From a virus (lineage: Duplodnaviria > Heunggongvirae > Uroviricota > Caudoviricetes), in IMG/VR virus record IMGVR_UViG_2541047697_000005: a DNA stretch of 44,762 nucleotides; one strand, written 5' to 3'. The stretch's first letter is position 1. The number at the start of each line of letters is the position of its first letter. The position numbers and the translations under genes are program-made. The notes beneath the pieces are model-generated. The model did not search any database. It saw only the letters and a program-made list of their open reading frames with translations, and was not told the origin of the DNA. Shown piece by piece: positions 631 to 24,274 of this stretch.

Positions 631-639
631 CAGGGCCTC

Positions 640-4724: not shown

Positions 4725-4781
4725 GTTCTCCACCTGCAAAAAAGCCCCGGATAACCGGGGCAAATGATGAGTATCGTCCTG

Positions 4782-5525: not shown

Positions 5526-5535
5526 TGCCACCTCC

Positions 5536-6524: not shown

Positions 6525-6535
6525 CCCATACCTCT

Positions 6536-7127: not shown

Positions 7128-7170
7128 AACTGTCTCCGCACAGCCCCGTTCAGGGGCTGATTTCAGGTAC

Positions 7171-7189
7171 AAAAAAAGCCCTTACGGGC
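7171..7189 (-). terminator. Rho-independent terminator after the capsid gene
   Basis: Minus strand reads GCCCGTAAGGGC hairpin followed by TTTTTTT. Confidence 0.55.
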
Positions 7190-7213
7190 CATCAGAGTTG
7201 TTGTCTGCGACGT

Positions 7214-9172: not shown

Positions 9173-9185
9173 CCTGAACCAGGAA

Positions 9186-10694
9186 TTATTCTTCGGACTG
9201 GTCGTCGGTGTGCTGCGGCTCCTGTCGTTTCGTTGCGGCACTGCTGCCTCCTTTATCACTGGCCGGATCGGTATCAAATACCAGTTCCAGCTTGCGGTTT
9301 TCATCAATTTCGGCCTTGCGCCGACGTTTGACATCATCCGGATTACGACCACCAGCACGTACCCAGTCTGATTCTGTCGCCGCTCCACCACGAATCTGGA
9401 TTTTCCAGGCCTCAGCCTCCTTAACAGGGTCAATCCACGGCATCACTGGTCCGGAATACACCGCGGTATACAGTGAAGAACGGTCAAGATCGCGGGGTAA
9501 CCTGATAACACCGGATGCCACAGCCTGTTTCAGCCATGCACGATACATCGGGCGGGTGACGGCACCAATAAACCAGTCCTGCAGGATCAGGTAGCCATCA
9601 GTAGACTCAACCAGCTCCTGACGCTGGGCGCTGTAAGTGCCGTTATAGTTGCGCGCTGTACTGGAAAAACTCAGACGACTGCCAGCCGCCACTGCACGCA
9701 ACTGACCATTACGAAAAGTTTCAAGATTAGGATTGGGGCGATCCGACTTCACCATTCCAATTTCTTCGCCGGGTTTCAGATCGTCGTAAATAATGCCTGG
9801 CTGAATGGTAAGCTCGCGTTCCTTATCCTTGCTGCCATTACCATCCGGTTCATAGCTCTGCCCGTCGCCTTTGCGGATGTACATCCCCAGAGCAGCGGCG
9901 ATCCTTGCTGCAGTCAGCTCAGAATCTTCATACTCTTTCAGGGCACTGAGGCGGATCAGCACACCGGACAACAAAGACGTCCCGCGCATCTGGTGCAGAC
10001 GGCGAACAAATTTAAGATGCAGCATTCGCTCTGCATCCACTTCTTTGGTTTCCATCTGCCGTCCGGATACGGGACGGCTTTTATACACCAGATATTTTTC
10101 GGGACGCCCCCAGTCATCAACAAACACGCCCTGATTCAGCCTGTTGCTCTCATCACTGGTCATGGGAATAAAGTCTGGCTCGAGCGCCTCCAGCCAGAAA
10201 TGAACACCGGCAGAAGGCGTCAGGCTGTTTATGCGCCCGGAAACCATCTGGGCAAACACCTCACCATCGCGCAGCCAGGTACGCAGCATCAGACGTTCCA
10301 GCATCGGACGGGTAAACTGCCCGGTGACTTCCGGGCTGACAGACCATTCACTCCATCGGGTGCGAATCTCCGCTGCCAGATCACGGGCAATGGCCCCATT
10401 GCGTAATACCGGATGTGGCTCGACAATAATCCCGTTTTTCCCCACCACCCGTTCTTCCAGCTTGTCAAATACACCAATAACCAGATCGTGGTTGTTATCA
10501 AGGTAACGGGCCTGCTCACGTAACGACACGGCCCCGTACTGGCTTAACTGGTCGGCAGTTCGGTTTTCCCGCCGGGCTTTGTGTGTCCGCGTCGTTTTTA
10601 CGGCCTCATAAGCCTGGATCACCGCACGGGAACGCAGCCTTGCCGCTTTCCATCCTGGTGAAAAAACGCCAATCACATCATCAAGAATTGCCAT
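9186..10694 (-). CDS. Portal protein (lambda gpB family)
   Basis: About 500 aa between W and capsid; start at ATG 10694 overlapping W stop (ATGA); ORF-track start 10766 is probably too far upstream. Confidence 0.8.
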   Translation of the reverse strand: MAILDDVIGVFSPGWKAARLRSRAVIQAYEAVKTTRTHKARRENRTADQLSQYGAVSLREQARYLDNNHDLVIGVFDKLEERVVGKNGIIVEPHPVLRNGAIARDLAAEIRTRWSEWSVSPEVTGQFTRPMLERLMLRTWLRDGEVFAQMVSGRINSLTPSAGVHFWLEALEPDFIPMTSDESNRLNQGVFVDDWGRPEKYLVYKSRPVSGRQMETKEVDAERMLHLKFVRRLHQMRGTSLLSGVLIRLSALKEYEDSELTAARIAAALGMYIRKGDGQSYEPDGNGSKDKERELTIQPGIIYDDLKPGEEIGMVKSDRPNPNLETFRNGQLRAVAAGSRLSFSSTARNYNGTYSAQRQELVESTDGYLILQDWFIGAVTRPMYRAWLKQAVASGVIRLPRDLDRSSLYTAVYSGPVMPWIDPVKEAEAWKIQIRGGAATESDWVRAGGRNPDDVKRRRKAEIDENRKLELVFDTDPASDKGGSSAATKRQEPQHTDDQSEE

Positions 10695-10912
10695 CAGAAC
10701 CTCGCCAGCCGGTACCCGGGATGCCCCCGTCGTCGTGTAATCAGAGTCGCAAGGCGGCGCTCCCACTCCTGCCGTCCCTGCCGGATCTCAGATAAGTTTT
10801 CCATGGTCATCTGCTGACCATTAAAAGTGACGGATTTTCCGTCCAGCACCGCCATTTCAGCTTCCGTATAACGCTGAATCATGGCTTCAATATCATTCTG
10901 ATTCATAACCAT
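10694..10912 (-). CDS. Head-tail joining protein W-like
   Basis: 72 aa ending ...TRRRGHPGYRLARF, resembling lambda gpW C-terminus; between terL and portal. Confidence 0.65.
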   Translation of the reverse strand: MVMNQNDIEAMIQRYTEAEMAVLDGKSVTFNGQQMTMENLSEIRQGRQEWERRLATLITRRRGHPGYRLARF

Positions 10913-12015
10913 CCTCCGGAAGTCAGCCAGGGGTTAACATCGTCAGTTACTGTTTTCTTCCGTTTTTGTTTTTTAACAGGCGTGGGTACCGGTTCCGGTG
11001 AGGGTGACGGTTCGGTACTGTCCGGGACACACTCCAGCCAGGTTTCCCGGCTCGCCCACTCCGGTGCATCCGGCCAGCGGATCTTTTCGTATCCATGCAG
11101 AATGACCAGCGCCTCGGCATACACCATCAGGTCAAAAGCTTCGTTGGCACCGCGACCCGGCTTACTCCATTTCCCGTCACTGCTCCGCTCTTCATACGTC
11201 AGTTCGTCGTAAAACCAGCTCCCCAGCCAGTCAGGGAAATGCACATAGCCTGGACCTGGCGAGTCACGCCATAACGCGTTATTCACCCGGTCTTTCAGGG
11301 CATCCGTCTGAAGAAGCCAGAGCGGCACATCACCTGCGGCCTGCGCCCGGCGGCCCGTTCGTCCGGTGTTATCAGGGAATGTACGGCTGATCAGTTTTGC
11401 GCGCCGGATGCTGTCGCCCTTAAACAGGTAAATACGTTTACCAAGGCCATCACGACGGCAACGACGCCAGAATTTATAGGCATTATCAGTGACCCCGTCT
11501 TCACCGCCGGAGTCCACCGCCATTGCCATCAGTCGCATTTGTTGAGAAGGATCGGAGGCCAGCGGCCAGCTTTTATGAAAAACATCCGTCAGCAGGACAT
11601 CCCAGTCTTCCGGATAGCTGGCCGGATCAATTCGCTGGCTCTCCCCGTCGCAGTCACTGCGCAATGACTGCGTGATGTTGTAACGATCAATAATCCAGCG
11701 TTCGCCACGGCTGCCATAGCCCGTTACCTGAACCACAAAACGGCGATGACGTCCCGCCTGCACATCCACTGTCGCCACAAGGAAATTAACGCCATCCGGA
11801 ACACTGCGGGAAGGAACTGGCTCTGCCCGCTGCTCAAGCAGTTCACTTTTTCGTTGCTCCATGCTGGCACGAGGAAGATAAGGCAATCCCCAGTCGGTGT
11901 TGATAACCGCCCTGAGTGTTTCTTCGCTTCCTGTCGCTTCATACTCCTGTTCTGCAGTCAGTAATTTGTAAACCAGTTGCGCCCAGGTCTGATACGCAGC
12001 AGCTGGCCCTTCCAT
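10903..12015 (-). CDS. Terminase large subunit, C-terminal (nuclease) half; gene interrupted by the integrated element
   Basis: 370 aa starting MEGPAAAYQTWAQLV; lambda gpA-like C-terminal region; the ATG lies in the 7-bp repeat at the insertion junction; no ATPase domain in this ORF. Confidence 0.8.
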   Translation of the reverse strand: MEGPAAAYQTWAQLVYKLLTAEQEYEATGSEETLRAVINTDWGLPYLPRASMEQRKSELLEQRAEPVPSRSVPDGVNFLVATVDVQAGRHRRFVVQVTGYGSRGERWIIDRYNITQSLRSDCDGESQRIDPASYPEDWDVLLTDVFHKSWPLASDPSQQMRLMAMAVDSGGEDGVTDNAYKFWRRCRRDGLGKRIYLFKGDSIRRAKLISRTFPDNTGRTGRRAQAAGDVPLWLLQTDALKDRVNNALWRDSPGPGYVHFPDWLGSWFYDELTYEERSSDGKWSKPGRGANEAFDLMVYAEALVILHGYEKIRWPDAPEWASRETWLECVPDSTEPSPSPEPVPTPVKKQKRKKTVTDDVNPWLTSGGWL

Positions 12016-12019
12016 CCAG
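12013..12019. repeat. Left junction core CATCCAG (att core copy 1)
   Basis: Identical 7-mer at 22737-22743; terL homology ends here and AT-rich element DNA begins. Confidence 0.6.
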
Positions 12020-12261
12020 GAAGAAGTAAATAAAAGGTAACTAAATGATTATAAGGTACTATTTAGTTGTAACCCCATCCACATAGTCCAAGATTTAGTA
12101 CCTGCCTAAGCGATAAAAAAAAGAAAAAGGTAGCAATATTAATTAAAAGCTGAATACGCCGCCATGCATTAACACGATGACGCTGCCCGACTGCGCGGCC
12201 TTCTGTTTACCTTCTGGTAGTCTGATTCCGGTGGCACGGCGGATCACGGCGTCGTTCATTA

Positions 12262-12747
12262 TCATGCCTGTTTTACATCCTCATTCACTGCGTCATTTTT
12301 TACCATCCGGCTGATAATCTGATTACACAAATCGTCAATAATTGACTGCACTCTGTTTACTGCCATCGGTTTAAGCCCAGCATCACGTGCCAGAATACTG
12401 GGGAGTTTTTCCAGTTCCTCGCTTACGATTTCCCCCCATATAGCCATCTCTTTTCGCACATCATCGGCGGGTATGAGTTGCGCCGTTTCCTGTTCGAACT
12501 TGAGGCGCTCACGTTCGGACTGATACCAGGCCTTACGGTCGTGTGGCTCCATTTCTTCCAGTGATGCCGGAACGGGAAGATCAAGAAAACAGGTCAGAAT
12601 GTCAGTCACCCGATAGAGTTTCAGCTTGTCATGTCCTCCGGCTGGATGGATATTTTTTAGCCTTGCCGCCGCAGTCTGGCGACATATTCCCGCTATCGCC
12701 GCCAGCTGGTTAATGTTCAGCATCAGATTTTTCAGTTCCCGATCCAT
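12262..12747 (-). CDS. Small terminase subunit (Nu1-like) encoded by the element
   Basis: Start at ATG 12747 (MDRELKNLMLNINQLAAIAGI, HTH-like); KAWYQSERERLKFEQETAQLIP parallels KDWYQSENERIKLEKEQRKLIP of the helper terS at 23735-24274; a cos-like site lies about 150 bp upstream. Confidence 0.7.
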   Translation of the reverse strand: MDRELKNLMLNINQLAAIAGICRQTAAARLKNIHPAGGHDKLKLYRVTDILTCFLDLPVPASLEEMEPHDRKAWYQSERERLKFEQETAQLIPADDVRKEMAIWGEIVSEELEKLPSILARDAGLKPMAVNRVQSIIDDLCNQIISRMVKNDAVNEDVKQA

Positions 12748-12900
12748 ACCCGCTCCAGAATGTTTTAAACATGCATCTTGCAAATATCTTTTAAAAAAGG
12801 TCAAAAAACGCGCCGCATGTTGAACACAAAATAAGCAAAATTAACATACCAAAAATAAAAATACTTAAAATTCAATACAATAGAAAGATGATGATGACGA

Positions 12901-12975
12901 ATGAAAATGCAAAAACTAGCCTTTTTCCGCGCCGCTGCCGCCCCGTGGTAAGGCCACTCCACCGGGAGGACCCGT
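12901..12975 (-). repeat. cos-like site copy 1 (element, upstream of element terS)
   Basis: About 75 bp near-identical to 15438-15511 and 24416-24488; minus strand contains ACGGGGCGGCAGCGGCGCGGAAAAAG, resembling the lambda cos junction as I recall it. Confidence 0.65.
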
Positions 12976-12998
12976 AAAAAAAGGCGGCTATCGCCGCC
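12976..12998 (-). terminator. Rho-independent terminator after element capsid gene
   Basis: Minus strand GGCGGCGATAGCCGCC hairpin followed by TTTTTTT. Confidence 0.55.
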
Positions 12999-13005
12999 CT
13001 TGTTG

Positions 13006-14919
13006 TCATGCTCCACTCGATTTCAGTAGTCCACGATAATCGAGGGCCGCAACACCTGCATCTATGCGCACCTTCCAGGCGACACCATCAACAGTAAAGC
13101 CCTCCTGCTCCTCAAGATATGGCGTATCAATACCATCAAGATAAGCGACCTCTATCGTGTCCATCCCTTTCGCTGCGGCTACATACCACTCCTTGTTATT
13201 GTTCTTATCAAGACGTGGCTCAACAATAACCTCAGCCATATCTTTCACCACGTTAATGATGCCGGGGTTCTGATTGATAGTGCCATCACCATCAACCGGA
13301 AAGAGTGATGACGATGACAGAATGGCGCGATGTGCGGCAGACTCCAGCGCGGCGGGGACCAGGACAAATGCGGGGGTAATATTCAGCGAATCACCGTTAG
13401 CGTCCTCCTGGAGGCGCATCAGCTTACGGGCTTCGTTAAGCCCCTCCATGTCCATATCCTTCGCAATAAGATTTTTATGATCGGCATGGAATAGCGCCTT
13501 ACCATCCGTGAATTTGCCGTTGCCGGTTAACAGGAGATACACCAGATTACCTACTGTTCTGGCGGCTGCACGCCCCATCGCCATGGGGATTGTAGTTAAC
13601 TGGGTCAGGTCATCGTTAATAATGGCCTGGCGGGTAACGGAAAAAATATTCCCGTATGTGGCCAGCGCAATAGGTACGCCTTTATCTCTGGTGGTGATGT
13701 ATTTATATTCCGCACCTTCCGGTACTTTATCCAGCTTTGAAAAACCATTCAGACCAACACGCTTTGCTTCATGAAAGTTTGAAAGCGATCCGCTACGCGT
13801 CCACTTCTGGAACGTTTCGCCGCTGTCCTGCCAGCCTTTCAGAACTGATTTTTCAGCACCACCAGCCAGAATATGAGAAAAATCGCTGCTGCTGTGTGTG
13901 AAAGCTGCATTAACGACCTGCGAGCGATTTAAAAAACCGCCAACACTGATACCACGATCCGTTAGTGATGCCTGGGCCATTTCAAAAAGGCTCATCATCG
14001 CGTAAGGATTTCCCCGCTCTGGGCGTTCATACCCGAGACGAGAATAAAGCCCCTGACGAATTGCATCACCTGTTATGTTCCCGTTACCGGCATAAATATG
14101 AGCCGGGGTATTTTTATTTGATGGCGTGGACTCGCGCCCCATCTCGTTCAACAACTTTTCACGGGCCATCTCCGGTGTACATGATGCATCTTCCAGGCAC
14201 GCCATTTTGATCCCGTCGTAACGACTGCCGAACAGGCTAAACACTTCACTTATTCCGTTGATGCGCTTCTGTTCATTACCAGCAATATTGGCTGCTCCCT
14301 GTGGCGGGGTAATCATTCCTTTAATGGTTTCCGGCATGTGTGAAAAATCTCCTGTGCGTTTCGATTCAATTCGCGCCATTGCTCTGACGGATGGCAACAA
14401 TTCATCAGCAAAACCGTGCTTAAGGCATTCTTTCCCGTCCATCCAGGTTTCATCTTCCAGCATGGCGGTAATTTCCTGTGCTGATTTGCCCGTTTTTCTG
14501 GCATAAGCAGGGATTAACACGGTTTCCACCTTATCCAGCAAATCAGCATAATCACGCATATCACCAGCATTTCCGCCAGAGATACCCCACGGCTTATGTA
14601 TCATCATCATGGCGTTTTCCGGCATCACAACACGATCGCCAGCCATTGCGACAACCGAAGCCATTGAAGCCGCAACACCATCGATATAAACCGTAATTTC
14701 TGCCGGATGATTCCGTAACAGGTTATAGATGGCGATGCCTTCAAACACGTCACCACCTGGCGAATGGATCCGCAGGTCGATATGTGAGACATCGCCCAGG
14801 GCTTTCAGGTCTTCCGCAAACTGCTTCGCGGTGATACCGAAGCCGCCAATTTCTTCATAGATGGATATTTCTGCCGCTCCGCGAACACCCGCCGCCTTAA
14901 TGGTGTACCAGTGATTCAT
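13006..14919 (-). CDS. Second prohead protease-major capsid fusion protein (element copy)
   Basis: 637 aa colinear with the helper protein at 7214-9172; shared blocks include SPGGDVFEGIAI, MIHKP, EKLLNEMGRESTPSNKNTPAHIYAGNGN, RQAIINDDL, TIEVAYL. Confidence 0.8.
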   Translation of the reverse strand: MNHWYTIKAAGVRGAAEISIYEEIGGFGITAKQFAEDLKALGDVSHIDLRIHSPGGDVFEGIAIYNLLRNHPAEITVYIDGVAASMASVVAMAGDRVVMPENAMMMIHKPWGISGGNAGDMRDYADLLDKVETVLIPAYARKTGKSAQEITAMLEDETWMDGKECLKHGFADELLPSVRAMARIESKRTGDFSHMPETIKGMITPPQGAANIAGNEQKRINGISEVFSLFGSRYDGIKMACLEDASCTPEMAREKLLNEMGRESTPSNKNTPAHIYAGNGNITGDAIRQGLYSRLGYERPERGNPYAMMSLFEMAQASLTDRGISVGGFLNRSQVVNAAFTHSSSDFSHILAGGAEKSVLKGWQDSGETFQKWTRSGSLSNFHEAKRVGLNGFSKLDKVPEGAEYKYITTRDKGVPIALATYGNIFSVTRQAIINDDLTQLTTIPMAMGRAAARTVGNLVYLLLTGNGKFTDGKALFHADHKNLIAKDMDMEGLNEARKLMRLQEDANGDSLNITPAFVLVPAALESAAHRAILSSSSLFPVDGDGTINQNPGIINVVKDMAEVIVEPRLDKNNNKEWYVAAAKGMDTIEVAYLDGIDTPYLEEQEGFTVDGVAWKVRIDAGVAALDYRGLLKSSGA

Positions 14920-15125
14920 TGCTCACCCCCAGATGCAAAACCATTCTTATCAAGCCACGCGTTAACTGCGTGTCTGACAATCTGCGCCACACCTGGTAAT
15001 GGTTGGCCAGGATGATGATTTATGTGGTCGATCCTGTACTGCTTAAGGCGCATAACGGTCTGCGCATCCAGATGAACGGAACCACCTCTTACCTCGCCTG
15101 TGTTCAGGTCATTAATACAATTCAC
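14916..15125 (-). CDS. Hypothetical 69-aa protein translationally coupled to the element capsid gene
   Basis: GTG start with AAGAGGAAG RBS; its stop overlaps the capsid ATG; no family recognised. Confidence 0.45.
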   Translation of the reverse strand: MNCINDLNTGEVRGGSVHLDAQTVMRLKQYRIDHINHHPGQPLPGVAQIVRHAVNAWLDKNGFASGGEQ

Positions 15126-15227
15126 AGTAACTTCCTCTTACTGACTAAACTGCGTGCATTATTGATCGATAAAAGTGGTAGATAAACATATTTCTATCAT
15201 AAAAACAGATTAGTCAGATTCAGACAC

Positions 15228-15250
15228 AAAAAAGCCGGAGAAAATCCGGC
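15228..15250 (-). terminator. Rho-independent terminator
   Basis: Minus strand GCCGGATTTTCTCCGGC hairpin followed by TTTTTTGT. Confidence 0.5.
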
Positions 15251-15285
15251 ATAAATATCCCGCCATCTGAACACGTTTTGACACT

Positions 15286-15511
15286 GGCAACTCCACCTGG
15301 CAGGTGAAAAACATATTTATTTATATATTTCAATTAATTACAAACTGGTCTAATGACAGGGCGAAAAAAATATTGTACAGGTGAAAACGGAAATATTTTT
15401 TAATTATCAATAAATTATCACACATGCTGCCGCCGCCATGAAAATGCAAAAACCAGCCTTTTTCCGCGCTGCTCCCGCCCCGTGGCAAGGCCACTCCATC
15501 GGGAGGACCCG
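15286..15511 (-). repeat. cos-like site copy 2 (element), extended ~225 bp duplicate of the helper cos region
   Basis: Near-identical to 24265-24488 including the AT-rich segment and a stub of the terS 5' end (GTGGAGTTGCCAGTGTCAAAACGTG vs helper ATGGAGTTGCTTATGTCAAATGTG). Confidence 0.65.
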
Positions 15512-15512
15512 T

Positions 15513-15534
15513 AAAAAAGCCGGATTGTTCCGGC
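15513..15534 (-). terminator. Rho-independent terminator after ssb
   Basis: Minus strand GCCGGAACAATCCGGC hairpin followed by TTTTTT. Confidence 0.55.
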
Positions 15535-15550
15535 TTCTGTCACTCGTTGC

Positions 15551-15973
15551 TTAAAACGGTATGTTATCCCCGTACGGATCATCATTTCCCGCCTGTTGTT
15601 TTGCCCTGTTCAGCGCGTCAGTAGCCTGGCCCTGCTGGCCTTTTTTGCCGCCCGGTCGCGCCGTTCTCGCACTGATTACGCTGTCTGCGATGACCTGCCA
15701 GCCCTGCCGCGTTTCGCCGTTCTGGCCTGTCCACTGGCTTACCTGCATGTTACCCGCCACGCTCACCAGTTCGCCTTTATGGTGTCTGGCCAGTGCGTCG
15801 GCCTGTCTGCCAAACGCCAGGACGGATAACCACATCGTCGCCGTTCCGTCATCTGCCTGGCTGCACGGCAGGGAAACCGCCATACTCGCCATCGCCATTG
15901 TTGTGCCCTTGCTGGTGGTCTTTAACTGCGGGTCAGCCACCAGCCGCCCGTAAGCCGCTATCTGTGCTGTCAT
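15551..15973 (-). CDS. ssb: Single-stranded DNA-binding protein
   Basis: 140 aa, Gly/Gln-rich tail ending DDPYGDNIPF (SSB C-terminal acidic motif). Confidence 0.75.
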   Translation of the reverse strand: MTAQIAAYGRLVADPQLKTTSKGTTMAMASMAVSLPCSQADDGTATMWLSVLAFGRQADALARHHKGELVSVAGNMQVSQWTGQNGETRQGWQVIADSVISARTARPGGKKGQQGQATDALNRAKQQAGNDDPYGDNIPF

Positions 15974-16227
15974 GCTGTATGCTCTCCGGTTTTAACGTTG
16001 ATGGTTGTCACCTGTTCCGCTTCGGCAATCTCCCGATCTGTCAGCGTGGCAAAGTTTGCCGCCGCTGTGGTCATGAATGCGCTTATCAGTTCGGGATGTG
16101 CTTTCGCGTATCCCTCTCCCGTGTTGCGGTCGATGATTTTTATCGCCATCCTCAGCCAGTGCTCTGTAAGGTCAATGGCGCGGTTATGTGGTTTCTTCTG
16201 ATTGTTAAATTTTCCTGATGTGTGCAT
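15970..16227 (-). CDS. Hypothetical protein
   Basis: 85-aa ORF overlapping ssb start; no family recognised. Confidence 0.4.
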   Translation of the reverse strand: MHTSGKFNNQKKPHNRAIDLTEHWLRMAIKIIDRNTGEGYAKAHPELISAFMTTAAANFATLTDREIAEAEQVTTINVKTGEHTA

Positions 16228-16261
16228 TTTTATTTTTACCCCCCTCGTTTAAAAAGTTTTG

Positions 16262-16505
16262 AGTTGTACCTCCCCTTGTCTACCTTATCTACCTTGCTGG
16301 CCCCAATGCCAGTAATGGCGCGGCTTTCAGCGGGGTAGAGTGCTTTTATCCACTATCTACCCCGTATCTACCTCCCTGTCTGATTCAGGTAAAATCAGGT
16401 AGAGAGGGTAGATAGTAGGTAGATAGTGAAAAAATGCTGTCTACCTAAGTTAATGTACTGAATTAAATGTATTTTCCTTTACTCAGGTAGACAGGGTAGA
16501 CAGCC
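16262..16505. repeat. Iteron array, putative replication origin of the element
   Basis: At least 10 copies of an 8-9 bp unit RGGTAGAYA / TRTCTACC in both orientations, immediately downstream of the primase-helicase gene. Confidence 0.65.
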
Positions 16506-16516
16506 ATTGCAAAAAA

Positions 16517-18271
16517 TTATAAAAACGCGTCGCAATCGTCTGTTGTTATTGCGTTAGTCTGCGTTACCCCCTTAACTTTCCGCGTAATATATTCATGTCC
16601 GTAAACTTTCGCGGCGGGCTTCATAGCCTTGCCAAAGTCATTTACGTTCAGCGGTTTGGTCCTGCCTGCGTAAGCCATAAACGCCAGATAGACACGGTAA
16701 AGGCTGTTCCTGGTTGTGTACTTCACGGAATCACCACCGCCGCCCATCATCAGGCCACGCGCTTCCTCCAGAAAATTCAGGAACTGGCAAAACTCAATAA
16801 CTGGATCCGTTTGCTGCTTTATCGCCAGTGCTTCATCACCGTCACGCTGTTCCAGTAGTAAAGCCCGTGCCTTCTCAGGGTCGGTAAAGTTCGCCAGCAA
16901 TCGGCGGATAATAACGGGGATTTCAGCCGCAATCTTTTCCGGTAGCTCCCTGTCTTTTTCGGCCTCACTGACGATATTGTCGAAACGGAAAATCACGCGA
17001 CGACGTGCCACACCTCCGGCACGTTCGGTGAATATCATCGGGTTGTTGTTGGTCGCCAGCACCACCGCCCTGATTACCGCCGTGAAACGCTTTTCATATT
17101 TCGGGTTAATTTCCACGGGGTCGCCGCCTGTGATTTTCTTGATGCCCGTTCCTTCTCCTGTATATTTCGGCTGGTCAGCCAGGACGATAAGACGACTCCC
17201 GACAACCTGCGCACGTCCACCAGCATCATCAAGCGATGTCATTTCAGCGCTTACCGTGTTCTGTTTCCCTGCCAGAAGGCTGGCTATGTGTGTGAATGTA
17301 CTTTTACCGCTCCCGCCGTCTCCGGTGGCCTCAATAAACATCTGCCAGTCGTACCGGTTCGCCATAATCATGTACAGCGCGGCACATATACGCATCATCT
17401 TGCGCGGGTCTTTTCCGGCTGCGTGCTCAAGCCATTTATGAAAGTTTGGCGCGTTATCGCGGATGTTTTCCCCTGGTGCTGGTAGCGTGTACTCAATGCC
17501 GTTGTGCGTGGTGATCCAGTTCTCCGGCGTGTGCGGGGAAAATTCCCCCGTTTTCAGGTCAAGCGCACCATTGGCGAACGGCAGCAAATCGCCGGACGGC
17601 TCGCCCATTGGTTCGGCAATAACTTTTAACGCTTCCACGGCGTTATTGATTACGCGCTTGCTGAAAGTGGCCCTGTGCTCTGAATAGATCGCCACCATTT
17701 CGCGGCTAAGTTCCATTGTGCTGACCTGACACCATACCCCGCCGCGCCATACGTGAACGATTTCACTTTCAGGATGTACGCAAACGCCATCAAAGCGATC
17801 GGCTAGCAGCTGCGCGCGCTCACTGTCCGCCATCTGCGAAAGTTGCGCCTTTTGCTTTACCGGAAGCTCAATGACCAGACCATCAGAAAGATTCTGGCGC
17901 TCACGGGCCAGATATTCGCGCCAGTTCTGCACCTCCTGGCCGTGCATACCCTCAGGATAAAAATTTGCATCCTGTACGCCTGCCGCCGCCAGCTTCTGAC
18001 CAATCGCCTTTATCATTACTGGCGCAAGATATCCGGCCCTGAATATGCGCACGGATTTTCTGCCTTCCGGCACAATTTGCAGCTTATCCAGTTCGGATAA
18101 CTGCTGCTCCCCAAGCCACACAGGAGGCTCATTATCTCCGGCCATACGCGCGTCATGTTCCTGCCATTGTTTTGCGTGTGACCAGGCATCACTACCCGCA
18201 AAAATAATTACCTCTGTGTCTTTGTTTTTTATTCCGCGAGGCTGTTTTTTTACGTTCGGTGCCAGTTTCAT
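16517..18271 (-). CDS. Primase-helicase (P4 alpha / D5-family)
   Basis: 584 aa with Walker A GDGGSGKST; P4-type primase C-terminal region; adjacent iterons. Confidence 0.8.
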   Translation of the reverse strand: MKLAPNVKKQPRGIKNKDTEVIIFAGSDAWSHAKQWQEHDARMAGDNEPPVWLGEQQLSELDKLQIVPEGRKSVRIFRAGYLAPVMIKAIGQKLAAAGVQDANFYPEGMHGQEVQNWREYLARERQNLSDGLVIELPVKQKAQLSQMADSERAQLLADRFDGVCVHPESEIVHVWRGGVWCQVSTMELSREMVAIYSEHRATFSKRVINNAVEALKVIAEPMGEPSGDLLPFANGALDLKTGEFSPHTPENWITTHNGIEYTLPAPGENIRDNAPNFHKWLEHAAGKDPRKMMRICAALYMIMANRYDWQMFIEATGDGGSGKSTFTHIASLLAGKQNTVSAEMTSLDDAGGRAQVVGSRLIVLADQPKYTGEGTGIKKITGGDPVEINPKYEKRFTAVIRAVVLATNNNPMIFTERAGGVARRRVIFRFDNIVSEAEKDRELPEKIAAEIPVIIRRLLANFTDPEKARALLLEQRDGDEALAIKQQTDPVIEFCQFLNFLEEARGLMMGGGGDSVKYTTRNSLYRVYLAFMAYAGRTKPLNVNDFGKAMKPAAKVYGHEYITRKVKGVTQTNAITTDDCDAFL

Positions 18272-18555
18272 TTCTTACCCCCTGCGACCAGCATTTCACG
18301 GATTTTGCGGATATAGCTTGCTGCACGTTTCTGATTTACGGCTTTACGATGGCCCACCAGCTTAAAATCACGCCGGAACTGATAAACAGGCATCACGCAG
18401 TCGTAGCTGTACCCATCACGGCGGTAAGTAACGCACCGTCCGGCAATACTTTTAATCGTTACCGTGCCGCCGTAGTTATCCCGGAAAATATCGCCGGGGC
18501 GGATTTCAGGCCGAGCGGGGCCGCTGGCAGTAAAGCCAGAAATTTTCTGTTTCAT
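18268..18555 (-). CDS. Hypothetical protein
   Basis: 95-aa ORF, stop overlaps primase start. Confidence 0.45.
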   Translation of the reverse strand: MKQKISGFTASGPARPEIRPGDIFRDNYGGTVTIKSIAGRCVTYRRDGYSYDCVMPVYQFRRDFKLVGHRKAVNQKRAASYIRKIREMLVAGGKK

Positions 18556-18560
18556 GGTTT

Positions 18561-18770
18561 TTATTCCTCTGCGCGGGTCTTGTTGTGTATTTCCATAACC
18601 GCGTTTAATTCATCAATAACCGGGGTTAACAGAGTGCTGAAAGCAGAAAATAAATCCCCCCCCTGTTCGGCATGAACTTCGGTTAATTTAATTAATACCG
18701 CTTTCATTTCCAGTGCCCGATTTAATGCATTCTCAGAATGAATAAGAACATCGAAAGGGATTTCATTCAT
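18561..18770 (-). CDS. Hypothetical protein
   Basis: 69-aa ORF in operon context. Confidence 0.4.
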   Translation of the reverse strand: MNEIPFDVLIHSENALNRALEMKAVLIKLTEVHAEQGGDLFSAFSTLLTPVIDELNAVMEIHNKTRAEE

Positions 18771-18996
18771 GGCTCACCACCTCCGGGAATTTTCTTCTGT
18801 AACGCGCCTCTGCAACATATTCCGCATAGTCCGACGCAATATTGAGAATATCGCTACCCGTTCCTGAATGTTCGGCGGTTTCCAGTAAAAAACATGCAGC
18901 TTTTACCATGTCAGCAACACATAACAGCGCAATATCTGTATCTTCCGGTGCGCCATCAAATTCCTGTTTCAGGGCATTAAAACGATCATCACGCAT
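18763..18996 (-). CDS. Hypothetical protein, possible downstream part of a gene split at a poly-G tract
   Basis: 77-aa ORF whose ATG sits 2 nt after a G12 run; one extra G fuses it with the ORF at 18969-19232. Confidence 0.4.
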   Translation of the reverse strand: MRDDRFNALKQEFDGAPEDTDIALLCVADMVKAACFLLETAEHSGTGSDILNIASDYAEYVAEARYRRKFPEVVSHE

Positions 18997-19232
18997 AACC
19001 CCCCCCCCCCATTTTCACAATCCGTAATCAGGATGGCTTTAGCCTCATTCAGCGCCATATCAGCGGTAAGCTGTGCGTAGGCCAGCGAATGGGGGATTAT
19101 TGCCCCTGTATATTCCGGCTCTCTGGTAATGTGTTTTTCTGCGGTTGCTGCCGTGCATGAAATATCAATCAGCGCGTGCATCAGCGTTCTGATAGCTTCG
19201 GCGGCTGCGTCCTGACGGGGGTTATTGCACAT
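18969..19232 (-). CDS. Hypothetical protein, possible upstream part of a gene split at a poly-G tract
   Basis: 87-aa ORF translating the G12 run as GGGG and ending 9 codons later. Confidence 0.4.
   Translation of the reverse strand: MCNNPRQDAAAEAIRTLMHALIDISCTAATAEKHITREPEYTGAIIPHSLAYAQLTADMALNEAKAILITDCENGGGGLCVMIVLMP
18999..19010. repeat. Homopolymer C12 (G12 on coding strand)
   Basis: 12 consecutive C on plus strand. Confidence 0.95.
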
Positions 19233-19488
19233 GGCGCACCTCCTGACGAATACGGGCGGCGAATACCATCACGCAGCCAGCCGGAGATTGCTGGCGTGCT
19301 TCCTGTTCGCTGGTGGCCTCGATGGTAATCACGCGCGGCTGTGCCGTGCTCAGGGCGATAAAACGCCAGATGTATTTATTCAGGTTGTGCGAGTCCCGCC
19401 CTTGCGGGTGTGTGGTATGATTTCTCATAGCTACCTCGATACGCTTTCTATCGTTGGTGGTTAGAAGCCCTGCGAGTGGTAACGACAC
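19222..19488 (-). CDS. Hypothetical protein (first gene of the element leftward operon)
   Basis: 88-aa ORF starting next to the divergent regulatory region. Confidence 0.4.
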   Translation of the reverse strand: MSLPLAGLLTTNDRKRIEVAMRNHTTHPQGRDSHNLNKYIWRFIALSTAQPRVITIEATSEQEARQQSPAGCVMVFAARIRQEVRHVQ

Positions 19489-19525
19489 TTGCGGGGCTTT
19501 GTCTTTTCATCGATTACCTTAACAA

Positions 19526-19608
19526 AGGTGTCAGCCACTATATTAGTAACAGGTGTCAGCCACGTCAATGGTGTTTTTCCGTTTTCTTGTGTGTATACTG
19601 TCAGCCAC
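19526..19608. promoter_or_regulatory. Divergent regulatory region with three direct repeats GTCAGCCAC and a TATACT -10 element
   Basis: GTCAGCCAC at 19530, 19555, 19600; first two extended as AGGTGTCAGCCAC; TATACT at 19594-19599 abuts the third repeat, 30 bp before the ATG at 19630. Confidence 0.5.
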
Positions 19609-19629
19609 CTAATAACGAGGGAATCCGAT

Positions 19630-19809
19630 ATGGCAACGAAAGCAGTTAATGGAAAATCCAAAAAACTTGAGGCTCGAGTACCCCACGCAATAGCTGACGC
19701 TGTAGAAAATTTAAAGGAAGAAGGCGAAAGCACAGGGCAATTTATCGTTTCGGCACTTGAAGGCGAGATCAAACGCCGCCAGCGTCGCAAGGCCAAAGAG
19801 CAGGAGTAA
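19630..19809 (+). CDS. Small ribbon-helix-helix-like DNA-binding protein, candidate regulator of the element
   Basis: 59 aa MATKAVNGKSKKLEARVPHAIADAVENLKEEGESTGQFIVSALEGEIKRRQRRKAKEQE; ACGAGGGA RBS; downstream of operator repeats. Confidence 0.5.
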   Translation: MATKAVNGKSKKLEARVPHAIADAVENLKEEGESTGQFIVSALEGEIKRRQRRKAKEQE

Positions 19810-19866
19810 CCATCACCAGCGCCGTGGTGCGGTGAACTGTGGCGCACAGGGCTACAGGTATCTACG

Positions 19867-20064
19867 ATGACTGACAAATCATTAAAGAAATTATCTTCAT
19901 CCAGGAAAAAACAACGCAAAAACGCGGTAAGCGAACAAGAACAGGAGAGATTCGCGCCATGTGCGTTTGTCCTTGAGAAGTTCTTAAAAGAGTACAGGCG
20001 CACAAAAATGGGGCTATATACCTGGAAAACATCGCAGCATGGCGATGCTAAAGAGCAGGAATAG
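19867..20064 (+). CDS. Hypothetical small basic protein
   Basis: 65-aa ORF following the RHH gene; weak RBS. Confidence 0.3.
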   Translation: MTDKSLKKLSSSRKKQRKNAVSEQEQERFAPCAFVLEKFLKEYRRTKMGLYTWKTSQHGDAKEQE

Positions 20065-20291
20065 CCCACCAGCAAGCCAGCACACTGATCACATTGCCAA
20101 CCGGATGTAATCACGGCATAGTAATCAGCGCTCATGCGTTGGGGATAACGTGTAGCTTGTGTCGAATGGCCACCGTAGCAGGTGGCCTTTGTTTTGCCTG
20201 TTATCCGGCAATTGTGGCGCTTCTCCACACGGTTGATATAATCCCCCTGCACAGATTCATTTTTTGCGCAGTAGGTTAATTGTTCGCAAGG

Positions 20292-20322
20292 GCGCTCCGG
20301 CAACGGGGCGCTTTTTGTTTTT
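20292..20322 (+). terminator. Rho-independent terminator
   Basis: GCGCTCCGGCAACGGGGCGC hairpin followed by TTTTTGTTTTT. Confidence 0.55.
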
Positions 20323-20480
20323 ACCCACCAGCACAATAAAAATCCTCTTTTCCCATTTTTGTAAAATTTCATGCTTTCCGGACGACTGGCCATATATCTT
20401 TTTTAGCAGAAGATTTTGCCTTGCTGGTTGGTAGCTTCCCGGTCCAACACGATGTACCGTATAATCAGCACTGCGAGTGG

Positions 20481-21059
20481 TTACTGAATACGCTCACCAA
20501 AGTAAAACTCAGGCTGATATTCACGTATCAGCCTTTTTTCTTCTTCCTCCAGCTCACGCTTTTTGCGCTTACAGGCCTGTAGCTCCCTCCCCTTCTCGCT
20601 GGCACTTATCTGATATTGCTCTTTACGGCGAGAAAAATCCTGTAATGCGCCCCACGGGATACCATAAGCCCCCGTTTTTCTGATACCCGGTATCACATTT
20701 CTGAATACCCAGTTACTGAAACGATGAGCAAATGTGCCAGGCGTCGTTGCTTTGCGGCTGCGGGCTATTAGTTTGTAGAAACCTGACTCAGAGATAATGC
20801 TCATATTCTGATTTCCTCCTGGGGTGTAAGTTAAATTTACTCCCTTTTCATCATCATCAAGCATCTGCAACGCCGTACGCGAATTGGTTAGTTCCAGCGC
20901 AGCACAAACATCTTTTGCAACAAACCACGGATCGCCGTTCAGATACACCACACGAACATCCACGCCATCAAAGCGCAGAACGACAAGATCACGAATATCG
21001 CAGAATTTTTTTACTGAACGAGCGTACCCCTTGCCCGTCACGGCAATATTTTTATTCAT
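20481..21059 (-). CDS. Bro-N domain protein (antirepressor-like)
   Basis: N-terminus LVVLRFDGVDVRVVYLNGDPWFVAKDVCAALELTNSRTALQMLDDDEKG matches the Bro-N pattern. Confidence 0.7.
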   Translation of the reverse strand: MNKNIAVTGKGYARSVKKFCDIRDLVVLRFDGVDVRVVYLNGDPWFVAKDVCAALELTNSRTALQMLDDDEKGVNLTYTPGGNQNMSIISESGFYKLIARSRKATTPGTFAHRFSNWVFRNVIPGIRKTGAYGIPWGALQDFSRRKEQYQISASEKGRELQACKRKKRELEEEEKRLIREYQPEFYFGERIQ

Positions 21060-21117
21060 CGTTTTTTACCTCACATACAAAAAACCCCGCATTGCGTGCG
21101 GGGTATGAAAGATATTA

Positions 21118-21321
21118 TTAGTGGGGATTGGCCTGTTCTCGTTGTTTATCTAACCATGCCTCTACATCTCTACGGTGCCAGGTATGCCGCCGCCCAATTC
21201 TGAACGGTTGAGGAAAACCATTATTTTCATCTTTCCAGAAATTGATGAATGCGCTCATTGCCCCATAGCGCAAAATTTTCATTACGTCTTTAGTAAATAA
21301 AATATCTTCATTGGTATTCAT
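21118..21321 (-). CDS. alpA: AlpA-family transcriptional regulator/excisionase
   Basis: 67 aa; MKILRYGAMSAFINFWKDENNGFPQPFRIGRRHTWHRRDVEAWL resembles AlpA; adjacent to integrase. Confidence 0.75.
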   Translation of the reverse strand: MNTNEDILFTKDVMKILRYGAMSAFINFWKDENNGFPQPFRIGRRHTWHRRDVEAWLDKQREQANPH

Positions 21322-21333
21322 TTGCTGAACTCC

Positions 21334-22572
21334 TCAACCATTTACTATTCTCAAACCTTTCTTACCACAGGATCTATTAATTACCCCTTTTCTCGCCTCA
21401 TCAAAAAAATCGCCTACCCATTGCATCATAATTTTGCGTTGTTCTAAATAAGTAGTTCTATTATAAATATCTCTTATTTTATCACCACTTTTATGTGCTA
21501 ATGCAGCCTCAATAACATCAGGGTTAAAACCCTCCTCATTTAAAAGCGTACTCCACATCGAACGAAAACCATGTAACGTTACAATCCCTTTGAACTTGCT
21601 GGCAGCAATTGGAGTATTGATAGTATTCCTCCCCATAGGCGCGTCTTTGGTTCTGGATGAATAGAATACATAACGCCCTCTTTTAATTTCCTGCATTGTT
21701 CTGAGGATGCTAATGGCCTGTGATGACAGGGGCACAACATGTTCACGATGGCATTTCATTTTATGCTCAGGGATAACCCACAGACCAGCATCAAAATCTA
21801 TCTCTGCCCACTCTGCCTGGATCGCCTCTCCAGGCCTGACCATTGTCAATATCTGGAATAAAAGCGCATTGTGAGCTATTTGATACTTATGAGGCACACT
21901 ATCCCACCAACTCAGAAATTCAGGTAATTTTTCTATAGGTAACGCTGCTAATAATTTATTTTTCTTTCCAGTGAATGCTGTCTTTATTTTAAGCAATGGA
22001 TTTATTTTCAATGCACCACAATTTACAGCGTAATTCATAATTTCATTTAATCTTGATATTAATTTTTTTTGCAGCGCGTTTTTATCAGATACGGCATCCA
22101 GTGCCTTAATTGCTAATGGTGCTGTAATTTTATCTATGCTGTATTTACCAAAGAAAGGAACAAGATACTTATATACTTCATATTCGATATTATACAACGT
22201 AGGTTTCCTCAACTCCGATCCTTTTTTAAAAGCGAACCATGCATTAGCAACGACTTCAAATGTCTGTAGATTTTTTAGCGCCATCTCAATTTTACGATTT
22301 TTCTTCTCTGTCACTGGATCAACTCCACGTGCAATCATTCGCCGAAGTTCATCACGTACTTCCCGTGCTTCCGCGAGTGAGAATTCAGGAAAACGCCCTA
22401 TCGTGTATGTCTGCCGTTTCTTCGTTATCGGATGGCTATAACGGAAACGCCACACTTTCCCACCAGCTTTACTCACATTCAGCAATAAACCGAACCCATC
22501 ATAAACGGCATAGTCCTTTTCACGTGGTTTCATTCCCTTAACTTCAGTCACGGTTAATGGCTTTACCGGCAT
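21334..22572 (-). CDS. Tyrosine integrase (P4 / CP4-57 IntA type) of the element
   Basis: 412 aa with P4-int-like N-terminus (GKVWRFRYSHPITKKRQTYTIGRFPEFSLAEAREVRDELRR) and C-terminal catalytic region (HGFRSMWSTLL...); AT-rich; next to the junction. Confidence 0.8.
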   Translation of the reverse strand: MPVKPLTVTEVKGMKPREKDYAVYDGFGLLLNVSKAGGKVWRFRYSHPITKKRQTYTIGRFPEFSLAEAREVRDELRRMIARGVDPVTEKKNRKIEMALKNLQTFEVVANAWFAFKKGSELRKPTLYNIEYEVYKYLVPFFGKYSIDKITAPLAIKALDAVSDKNALQKKLISRLNEIMNYAVNCGALKINPLLKIKTAFTGKKNKLLAALPIEKLPEFLSWWDSVPHKYQIAHNALLFQILTMVRPGEAIQAEWAEIDFDAGLWVIPEHKMKCHREHVVPLSSQAISILRTMQEIKRGRYVFYSSRTKDAPMGRNTINTPIAASKFKGIVTLHGFRSMWSTLLNEEGFNPDVIEAALAHKSGDKIRDIYNRTTYLEQRKIMMQWVGDFFDEARKGVINRSCGKKGLRIVNG

Positions 22573-22733
22573 CTATCGCCCTCATTTTTTAGTCCGTCAT
22601 GTAGTCCTTTCAAGTCGATAACAAGCGATAAACTAACTCATTATCAAGTAAAGAGAGGAAACACCAAAAATCACAACTCATTGAAAAGACTACAAAACGA
22701 CACCAGAACATAAAAACAGGTAAGAAATGTACC

Positions 22734-23726
22734 CTACATCCAGAAACTGGCGATACGGGAGCGGCGCGGTTCACCGGAAACGTTGCCGTTACGATCAATG
22801 ACCTGACCTTCACGCAACCAGACTCCTGCACTATTGAGCTCACGCTTTTTCTCCGCAGTGATAATGCCGCTGCAGTGCGGGCAAAGTAGATACGCCGCCT
22901 CACTGGCTTTAAAGGGATCCGGTTCATTACGGTAGCCGGTCATGGCATCCATAGCTGGCTGAAAATATTCACCGCAGTGCGGACATGGCCAGTACCAGCG
23001 GCGGCGGTCACCACGATTGTAAAGGGAAAGAATACCAGTCGTCGGTGGCGCTTCATGAGGCGACTTACGTCGCCATTTGCTGTCGCAGATGTCACGTCCC
23101 GGCGAGCTCTCCACCAGAGTCATCCCGGCGGACATAAATGTGGTGGTACGTTTTGAGGCCAGGGAGAAACCATCACCCTCGCTGTCGATATTCTCCGGAA
23201 AACGGTCGTAATCGGTTAAGGCGACAAACCGGTAATCCGACGACGACATAATGTTGACCGAGGGCCAACCAATTTTAAGGAACGAGCCATCCCTGAACGT
23301 CTTATCATGGACATTATTGTCGTTACGACGTGGACTCATTCTTTTCTTTACCGCCGCACTGCTTCTGAACGTTCTGTCGAGGCGCTTTTTAGAATGCTCG
23401 CGGGCCTTATCTTCGGTCATCTGCACAACGAGCATGTCCGAAGGATCGCAAACGATGGTATAGACAATCCATCCATCGATCAGACCAATGGTCTTCCCTG
23501 TTCGCGCAGGACCAACAAAAATCACCGCATCGTATTCACGCGATGCCAGGCAGTTCATGGGCTCAATGATGTAGGGTGTCAGTTCAGGATCCCATGGCAC
23601 CGAGTTACCAGCCCCCTTGGGAACACGCATGAATTTTTTAACAGCCTCCGAAATCGGCATGCGACGTGGTGGGGAAAATCCTGCCGATATGTCCCTTCCC
23701 AAATTTCGGGCTGATGAAAAACCCAT
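22734..23726 (-). CDS. Terminase large subunit, N-terminal (ATPase) half; gene interrupted by the integrated element
   Basis: 330 aa with FVGPARTGKT P-loop, WPCPHCGEYF and LLCPHCSGII motifs paralleling lambda gpA; ends ...RIASFWM followed by stop in element-derived sequence. Confidence 0.8.
   Translation of the reverse strand: MGFSSARNLGRDISAGFSPPRRMPISEAVKKFMRVPKGAGNSVPWDPELTPYIIEPMNCLASREYDAVIFVGPARTGKTIGLIDGWIVYTIVCDPSDMLVVQMTEDKAREHSKKRLDRTFRSSAAVKKRMSPRRNDNNVHDKTFRDGSFLKIGWPSVNIMSSSDYRFVALTDYDRFPENIDSEGDGFSLASKRTTTFMSAGMTLVESSPGRDICDSKWRRKSPHEAPPTTGILSLYNRGDRRRWYWPCPHCGEYFQPAMDAMTGYRNEPDPFKASEAAYLLCPHCSGIITAEKKRELNSAGVWLREGQVIDRNGNVSGEPRRSRIASFWM
22737..22743. repeat. Right junction core CATCCAG (att core copy 2)
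   Basis: Identical 7-mer to 12013-12019; terL N-half reading frame terminates (TAG) 1 codon into element DNA. Confidence 0.6.
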
Positions 23727-23734
23727 TATTCCTC

Positions 23735-24274
23735 CTAGAGACTCTCTCCTTCCTCATCAGGAATTAATTCAGCAGCACAAGCCTCGTAGGATTTTTCCTG
23801 AAGAGTGTATCGCAGGTCATCAATGGCCTGCTGTACAACGCCGACGGCCTGAGGAGTCAGGGCGCAATCGCGTTCAAGAACATCCGGAATTGTCTCCAGA
23901 ACCTGGACGACAGCCTTTCTCATGGACGAATAGACGATGACTACTTCATCAACTGGGATGAGTTTTCGCTGCTCCTTTTCCAGCTTGATCCTTTCATTTT
24001 CAGACTGGTACCAGTCCTTTCTCTCTTTCGGCTCCATACGGGATGGATCATGAACAGAGTCTGCTGCCTCATGCTTCACACTAAACAGGGCGGGCCCGAC
24101 ATGCTGCAGGGCGTAAACGGGGTTCCCCCTGACAGTCGCAGCCACAGGAGTGTTGGCCGCGAGGAGCCGTTTTTTTACTGTGTCCCGGTGAAGCCCAAAG
24201 GCCTCGGCGATTTTAAAAACACTCCAGTAATAAGCATCACCGATCCCGCTCACATTTGACATAAGCAACTCCAT
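23735..24274 (-). CDS. Small terminase subunit (Nu1-like) of the helper prophage
   Basis: 179 aa, N-terminal HTH-like region, immediately upstream of terL and downstream of cos. Confidence 0.75.
   Translation of the reverse strand: MELLMSNVSGIGDAYYWSVFKIAEAFGLHRDTVKKRLLAANTPVAATVRGNPVYALQHVGPALFSVKHEAADSVHDPSRMEPKERKDWYQSENERIKLEKEQRKLIPVDEVVIVYSSMRKAVVQVLETIPDVLERDCALTPQAVGVVQQAIDDLRYTLQEKSYEACAAELIPDEEGESL

Follow-up and report, generated by a model that had tools for sequence, protein, structure and literature searches.

The replication origins of Gram-negative phage-inducible chromosomal islands (PICIs) have been placed immediately 3′ of the pri-rep gene, where two sets of iterons flank an AT-rich region (Fillol-Salom et al. 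2018, ISME J, PMC6092414). In that study a plasmid carrying the pri-ori segment of the island EcCICFT073 was maintained at the restrictive temperature, as seen from colony formation; deletion of pri abolished colony formation, deletion of ori significantly reduced it, and "four allelic variants" of Pri-Rep were described. The subject of the present analysis is an array of short repeats in the IMG/VR virus record IMGVR_UViG_2541047697_000005, a stretch of 44,762 bp that is referred to as a whole as the window. The array occupies a 289-bp non-coding gap (16228–16516) between the stop codon of a 584-aa gene, the Pri-Rep initiator, and the ATG of an 85-aa open reading frame (ORF), and very probably serves a PICI of the EcCICFT073 type as its vegetative replication origin; this PICI lies here within the terL gene of a lambdoid (Qin-like) E. 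coli prophage. The type, position, and function of this origin are already known from a near-identical sequence, published in 2018.

The similarity to EcCICFT073 extends over both the initiator and the DNA that follows it. The two Pri-Rep proteins are identical at 572 of 584 positions (98%), and the gap is 96% identical across the entire intergenic region to positions 3997–4284, 3′ of pri-rep, in the EcCICFT073 sequence used for comparison (L087, of which 1–8700 is E. coli CFT073 1380000–1388700). All 11 repeat cores are kept in EcCICFT073, one flanking base is the only change within a 9-mer, and the AT-rich spacer is nearly unchanged, the origin DNA as a whole showing only a handful of substitutions. 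The gene order is also the same: DUF4222 precedes a 584-aa "DNA primase family protein", and past a gap of 288 bp come the 85-aa ORF and the gene for a single-strand DNA-binding protein (SSB). The published primers rep-3c and rep-2c map to L087 3980–4000 and 4287–4307, respectively, the text copy of rep-2c falling short of the genome sequence by 1 base. The delta-ori clone stops at L087 4000, 4 bp past the stop codon, whereas the pri-ori clone runs to 4307; the deleted "ori" is L087 4001–4307, corresponding to about 16205–16512 of the window, that is, the array with short flanks. All the properties of an EcCICFT073-type PICI origin that can be examined in sequence are found here: the position, iterons flanking an AT-rich spacer, the initiator allele, and homology to the deleted region.

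The carriers of the two origins differ, since the one described here lies within a prophage terL and has a different integrase. Beyond the shared block, EcCICFT073 has PerC, a λ-E-like capsid gene, and a decoration gene, whereas the late genes of the present island are a ClpP/capsid fusion and a TerS-like gene. The comparison shows the replication block to be a cassette common to embedded and free-standing PICIs.

The array was brought to attention by a first-pass annotation, made from the sequence alone, which reported at least ten copies of RGGTAGAYA/TRTCTACC in both orientations within about 250 bp of non-coding DNA. A motif search of the window bears this out, recovering 11 cores in 16279–16500, with TCTACC starting on the plus strand at 16279, 16288, 16356, 16367, and 16440 and GGTAGA at 16334, 16398, 16407, 16418, 16486, and 16495. 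Nine exact copies of RGGTAGAYA and one with a single mismatch are present in 16277–16502, and the eleventh core (16334–16339, in GGGTAGAGT) has two mismatches relative to the 9-mer. The window contains 15 copies of GGTAGA on its two strands; the four outside the array are isolated (7387, 15177, 26730, and 34979), and only that at 15177 is within the island. About 0.05 copies would be expected per 222 bp at the shuffled-window rate, giving a Poisson probability for 11 or more of 2.4e-22. The gap holds no ORF of at least 40 aa, and a scan of the whole island with Rfam matched no family, leaving an RNA element in the gap unsupported. The parts of the array, beginning at the initiator end, are as follows.

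16228–16516, no strand: whole intergenic region of the proposed origin (PICI ori, EcCICFT073 type); non-coding gap, inside the published delta-ori stretch
16485–16502, plus strand: initiator-proximal iteron pair, AGGTAGACA and GGGTAGACA, 9 bp start to start (motif search)
16446–16484, no strand: AT-rich spacer, 39 bp, 77% AT; proposed DNA-unwinding element (base composition)
16438–16446, minus strand: single inverted iteron at the edge of the AT-rich spacer, AGGTAGACA on the minus strand (motif search)
16397–16425, plus strand: inner iteron triplet, AGGTAGAGA, GGGTAGATA, and AGGTAGATA, spaced by 9 and 11 bp; right arm of inverted repeat I1
16354–16373, minus strand: inner iteron pair of opposite orientation, GGGTAGATA and AGGTAGATA on the minus strand, spaced by 11 bp; left arm of I1
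16346–16354, plus strand: degenerate iteron or DnaA-box-like 9-mer, TTATCCACT (read from the sequence)
16333–16341, plus strand: single iteron with a diverged 3′ flank, GGGTAGAGT (core hexamer; kept in relatives)
16295–16333, no strand: GC-rich spacer, 64% GC, with a conserved core (composition and alignment of relatives)
16277–16294, minus strand: distal iteron pair, AGGTAGACA and AGGTAGATA on the minus strand, mirroring the proximal pair (motif search)

Along the coding direction of the initiator gene, the array begins 15 bp past the stop codon with two direct repeats, followed by the 39-bp AT-rich spacer, one inverted repeat, and three direct repeats; the second half consists of two inverted repeats, one direct repeat, the 39-bp GC-rich spacer, and two inverted repeats. 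Neighboring repeats of the same orientation are spaced by 9 or 11 bp. Overall the array is an imperfect palindrome with its center near 16390, built from I1, a 39-nt imperfect inverted repeat, and I2, in which 16277–16294 pairs with 16485–16502. The AT-rich spacer is among the most AT-rich 40-bp stretches within 15500–17500.

The relationship between the repeats and the initiator was examined in a survey of 142 loci from IMG/VR, which was searched with the initiator and then with the SSB as anchor (at least 96% identity) after species-representative genomes had given too few loci (only 3); a megablast search with the replication region gave no hit among phage records. The loci fall into four initiator classes, each with its own repeat word.

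Class 0: initiator of 584 aa (window type); 88 loci; GGTAGA, mean of 10.3 copies per gap
Class 1: initiator of ~610 aa, alpha-like; 22 loci; GGTGAA, mean of 10.9 copies per gap
Class 2: initiator of ~470 aa, RepA-type (RepA/AAA_25); 19 loci; AGTGRG, mean of 7.6 copies per gap
Class 3: initiator of ~710 aa, DUF927; 13 loci; GCGGGTTA or GTCCCA (counted as GGGTTA and GTCCCA, one word per locus), means of 6.9 and 2.3 copies per gap

In each class, the words of the other classes have near-zero counts, and the general layout is the same, with two repeats past the stop codon, an AT-rich spacer, and inverted sets. The four classes match the "four allelic variants" of Pri-Rep described in PMC6092414. 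In E. coli EC42405, an otherwise near-identical embedded island encodes a RepA/AAA_25 helicase where the window has the alpha-like initiator, and its gap holds CCTCACTTT-type repeats; this exchange leaves the SSB gene and the 3′ two-thirds of the 85-aa ORF as they are in the window. More distant relatives have arrays at the same position, composed of TGTTCAC in a Serratia relative (54% identical), where the orientation order and the AT-rich first spacer are also the same, and of TGTTCAT in a Morganella relative (52% identical).

Two observations concern the edges of these classes. The boundary of the exchangeable module falls within the 5′ third of the 85-aa ORF (16100–16227 of the window compared with 16100–16215 of L003), its first ~35 codons changing together with the initiator and the repeats and the remainder being ~95% identical; an interaction of the initiator with the 85-aa protein (phrog_1231) is conceivable. 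In the DUF927 class, GCGGGTTA is the word in some loci (L093, L104, and L105) and GTCCCA in L102, and the C-terminal ~70 residues of the protein also differ, a pattern that suggests a further split in specificity within the class.

Among 65 distinct class 0 arrays, conservation is higher at core positions (0.908) than at other positions of the gap (0.737; Mann-Whitney p = 4.5e-8). Of the 88 arrays, 75 have the orientation string >><>>><<><< or either of two close variants, and nearly all have the first two repeats past the stop codon. The AT-rich spacer drifts in sequence among class 0 relatives and ranges from 38 to 62 bp, with a mean of 76% AT and never less than 66%; the 50 bp upstream of the 85-aa ORF have a conservation of 0.90. 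A search of 5,426 complete E. coli genomes recovered the array in 343, in 306 of these with a coverage of at least 80%; every match was chromosomal, and no RefSeq feature underlies it among the matches listed. The first-pass annotation had taken the array to be an iteron origin with a cognate initiator, a view that would have been undermined by a lack of conservation in related elements or of autonomous replication. It has held up well: the repeats are conserved in relatives, the EcCICFT073 copy replicates autonomously (PMC6092414), and the identity with EcCICFT073, the co-variation of word and class, the conservation of the cores, and the homology of the initiator to P4 alpha domain 1KA8, considered below, all point in the same direction.

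A segment of the GC-rich spacer (16300–16325), which reads CGCTGAAAGCCGCGCCATTACTG on the initiator-sense (minus) strand, is nearly invariant in both subtypes of class 0 array; the corresponding spacer in class 1 arrays is AT-rich and unrelated. The 9-mer TTATCCACT at 16346–16354 was considered as a DnaA box and rejected as a defining feature, since it overlaps a degenerate repeat and a DnaA-box-like site is present in 24 of 52 distinct class 0 arrays; it is probably not a conserved DnaA site.

The initiator gene and its two terminal domains are located as follows.

16517–18271, minus strand: initiator gene Pri-Rep, 584 aa (Pfam and PHROG matches)
16544–16810, minus strand: origin-binding (winged-helix) domain, residues 488–576, the proposed iteron reader (P4 alpha domain, PDB 1KA8, E = 1e-6)
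17867–18271, minus strand: N-terminal domain, residues 1–135, with a TOPRIM fold lacking the canonical acidic motifs

Matches in Pfam and PHROG, together with the N-terminal TOPRIM-like domain, give an architecture that continues with D5_N, a superfamily 3 (SF3) ATPase (DUF5906), and a Pox_D5-type C terminus, and the helicase core matches the SaPI5 primase-helicase 7OLA (E = 1e-15). The origin-binding domain is 32–35% identical to its counterparts in initiators whose arrays have TGTTCAC/TTCACC words. The designation "P4-alpha-like primase-helicase" in the first-pass annotation is only partly accurate: residues 141–573, comprising the helicase and origin-binding domain, align with residues 324–756 of P4 alpha with 40% identity over 434 aa, and residues 1–323 of alpha, the zinc/TOPRIM primase region, have no counterpart in Pri-Rep.

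The first ~135 residues of Pri-Rep gave no match in a Pfam search, and a search for homologues of this domain returned mostly truncated E. coli entries, which sufficed for an alignment and brought no new functional annotation. The family has an invariant A-G and R-x-A-G where TOPRIM enzymes carry E-G and D-x-D, these motifs having been placed at the TOPRIM positions from their order and from the strands of the model. Because the TOPRIM-like domain appears to lack the canonical E and DxD motifs, catalytic priming by Pri-Rep is doubtful, and "primase-helicase" should be regarded as a database name. The same domain is common to four otherwise different initiators, the two alpha-like alleles and the RepA/AAA_25 and DUF927 types, and is their most conserved part (40–68% identity), whereas divergence or replacement is seen in the helicase and C-terminal parts. 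It therefore cannot be the origin reader, being most conserved across classes whose repeat words differ.

Because the C-terminal domain is homologous to the origin-binding domain of P4 alpha and the repeat word co-varies strictly with the initiator class, it is proposed that, after induction, the winged-helix domain of Pri-Rep would bind the 8–9-bp TRTCTACC repeats. With repeats 8–12 bp apart (about one helical turn) in a large imperfect palindrome, Pri-Rep could be concentrated at the array and one or more SF3 helicase hexamers might assemble, a step suggested by analogy with P4 alpha and the self-loading SaPI (Staphylococcus aureus pathogenicity island) Rep helicases. The duplex would presumably open in the 39-bp, 77%-AT spacer between the repeat sets; the SSB encoded by the island two genes downstream would then coat the single strands, and a host polymerase would copy the element. 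A self-loading-helicase origin of this kind is the model with the best support.

Several considerations weigh against identification of the array as the origin. The experimental tests concern the EcCICFT073 copy and not this exact sequence, their support consisting of a genetic requirement for pri and the array region in the 96–98%-identical EcCICFT073 module only; a literature search found no biochemical demonstration of binding of Pri-Rep to the repeats for any Gram-negative PICI; and in P4, the repeat cluster found at this place beside the initiator gene is crr, which has an auxiliary role and is not where replication initiates.

The P4 precedent forms the basis of the chief formal alternative, that the array is an initiator-bound auxiliary site of the crr type that stimulates replication in cis, initiation taking place at a separate ori elsewhere in the island. 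P4 has a cluster of ten type-1 repeats just 3′ of alpha, which is crr (4291–4590), while its ori is at 9086–9809, and Pri-Rep possesses the helicase and origin-binding domain of alpha. However, motif searches of the whole window found no second cluster in the island, the array has no 120-bp tandem duplication of the kind seen in crr, and the EcCICFT073 clone sufficient for plasmid maintenance held only pri and the array region. An arrangement of this type is therefore regarded as very unlikely.

It is also conceivable that the array is a transcriptional control region, an operator or roadblock for the 85-aa ORF, SSB, and capsid genes that is bound by Pri-Rep or another regulator, with replication secondary or absent. 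In plasmids, initiators bound to iterons commonly act as transcriptional repressors as well, the array separates two co-oriented gene blocks, a scan of the array region predicted no terminator, and the 50 bp preceding the 85-aa ORF are, as noted, highly conserved. On the other hand, the repeat word goes with the initiator upstream rather than with the conserved genes downstream, deletion of the homologous EcCICFT073 region impairs plasmid maintenance, and a promoter scan of the array region gave a single promoter-like match, at chance level and on the wrong strand, with no promoter-like site on the minus strand. A control region in place of an origin thus seems quite improbable, but a dual role as origin and operator is possible.

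The array could in principle be a packaging site (cos or pac) or an arm-type site of the integrase, since satellites carry cos/pac sites, integrases use repeated arm sites, and the island has a TerS-like DUF1441 gene. In strain C311, however, a 99%-identical array is present in an island at tRNA-Pro that has a 39%-identical integrase and different capsid and other late genes, and the array therefore travels with the initiator, with which it co-varies, and not with the integrase or packaging genes. It is also separated from int by 5 kb and from the TerS-like gene by 3.4 kb, and in EcCICFT073, cos1 and cos2 have been studied as separate elements, each with its own deletion mutant and plasmid, so that we consider these functions extremely unlikely. 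A chance cluster or decayed, functionless repeat, for which the shortness of the motif is the sole argument, is refuted by the clustering (P ~2e-22), the retention of cores and layout across 65 distinct arrays while spacers drift, and the occurrence of the array in 343 of the 5,426 E. coli genomes.

The relevant features of the element that carries the array are these.

12020–22743, minus strand: helper-embedded PICI, ~10.7 kb, to which the origin belongs (gene content, split terL)
15551–15973, minus strand: SSB encoded by the satellite (Pfam SSB, E = 4e-16)
15970–16227, minus strand: 85-aa ORF, phrog_1231, downstream of the origin (PHROG)

The carrier is not a P4-like element but a helper-embedded PICI within the terL of a prophage, with a single repeat cluster as opposed to the ori and crr of P4. 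In order of coordinates, the island contains genes for a DUF1441 TerS-like protein, a ClpP-protease/capsid fusion, and SSB, the 85-aa ORF, the array, and the initiator, followed by DUF4222, several small ORFs, a 310-aa ORF, BRO-N, a weak AlpA-like helix-turn-helix (HTH) protein, and a tyrosine integrase. Of these, int, BRO-N, DUF4222, Pri-Rep, SSB, the capsid fusion, and DUF1441 share the minus strand within 10.7 kb, a size that falls in the range of Gram-negative PICIs (~10–20 kb), and tail genes and other virion and lysis functions supplied by the helper are absent. The AlpA-like assignment is weak (HTH_17, E = 0.004, below the cut-off), and the annotation of EC42405 lists its homologue as an HTH regulator.

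The gpA-type terL is split by the island into a nuclease half (10903–12015) and an ATPase half (22734–23726) on the same strand as the island, and the same split terminase is annotated in RefSeq for E. coli EC42405. A 7-bp core, CATCCAG, is present at both junctions (12013–12019 and 22737–22743), and joining at this core restores the terminase frame ...FWM|EGPAAAYQ...; from the 7-bp identity and the restored frame only, CATCCAG is the putative core of the attachment (att) site. The terL of the CFT073 phage was tried as an empty-site reference and was too diverged for use. The helper is a lambdoid prophage with Qin-like lysis and cold-shock genes and a λ-like head and tail.

Some genes of the satellite have counterparts in the helper. 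The ClpP-protease/major-capsid fusion of the satellite (13006–14919) is 57% identical to that of the helper (7214–9433), and its DUF1441 TerS-like protein (12262–12804) matches that of the helper (23735–24274) over the C-terminal 75 residues only, with 49% identity. This pattern would fit a satellite that makes its own shell and redirects packaging through a different DNA-recognition end. The variable BRO zone, where accessory or defense genes are often located, contains the 310-aa ORF (19461–20393, minus strand). Searches of Pfam, PHROGs, NCBIfam, and PADLOC gave no match for it, and a PADLOC scan of this ORF and its neighbors found no defense genes.

Two further proposals arise from the constancy of the N-terminal domain and the location of the island; taken jointly, they are offered tentatively and are more apt to fail than to stand. 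The first is that Pri-Rep is not a primase and that its TOPRIM-fold domain may be a constant adaptor to a replisome partner from the host or the island, DnaG of the host priming at the origin. The second is that this copy of the origin, sitting within the helper prophage, could fire before excision and bring about amplification in place of the surrounding late region of the helper.

The array is useful for annotation because it marks the origin of a PICI replicon and defines the initiator allele of the island, and therefore probably which islands cross-replicate or are incompatible. The present results leave the understanding of this type of origin as it has been since 2018. The minor additions are an explicit table of initiator classes and repeat words, a dyad layout, itself conserved, in which one spacer is AT-rich and the other GC-rich and conserved, an apparently non-catalytic TOPRIM-like domain in unrelated initiators, and an array lacking a RefSeq feature among the matches listed.

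Plasmid iteron origins of the Rep_3/pPS10/RK2/F type have directly repeated iterons of 17–22 bp, a winged-helix Rep without a helicase, and usually DnaA boxes; here, the repeats are 8–9 bp long and in both orientations, the initiator is itself a helicase, and a DnaA-box-like site is present in fewer than half of the arrays. The core origins of SV40 large T and papillomavirus E1 have short initiator sites in inverted sets with an AT-rich tract on one side and a different flank on the other, recognized by an origin-binding domain attached to an SF3 helicase. This is an analogy only, since the origin-binding folds and the repeats are unrelated and the hosts are eukaryotic, and no homology is claimed.

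The origins of SaPIbov1 and SaPI1 are reportedly located immediately 3′ of rep (Ubeda et al. 2007 and 2012), with short iterons in two sets flanking an AT-rich stretch. The position and layout in SaPIs and other Gram-positive PICIs are the same as here, and they too have a self-loading helicase as initiator with a homologous helicase core (7OLA), but their repeats have no sequence similarity to those of the present array, and the DNA-binding domain of the present initiator is P4-alpha-like. SaPI primases carry a primase-polymerase domain, in place of which there is an N-terminal TOPRIM fold here. The helper-embedded configuration of PICIs was described by Mageeney et al. (2023, NAR Genom Bioinform, PMC10111431), who note an ori downstream of pri and give no analysis of the origin; they list 14 sites and name one, A:Terminase_1:245, whose profile differs from that of the gpA-type terL described here. 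The islands in that work resemble the present carrier in having int, an AlpA-like gene, a BRO zone, a primase, SSB, and captured late genes.

Comparison of the array with the origins of both P4 and PICIs shows that it matches the EcCICFT073 type and not the ori and crr of P4. P4 (NC_001609; PDB 1KA8) has two clusters 4.5 kb apart, the crr beside alpha being made from two 120-bp direct repeats, whereas here there is one cluster and the long-range symmetry is inverted; in addition, the 320-aa Zn/TOPRIM primase region of alpha is not present in Pri-Rep, where a 135-aa TOPRIM-fold domain stands in its place. The two systems are nevertheless alike in having an octamer-sized repeat in both orientations with a spacing of 9–11 bp, a homologous winged-helix domain, and an array 3′ of the initiator. 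No cluster of the TGTTCACC type was found in the window, but this type-1 repeat of P4 and the TRTCTACC of the present array are related words, and words resembling those of P4 (TTCACC/TGTTCAC) are used by class 1 and by the Serratia relative (L005).

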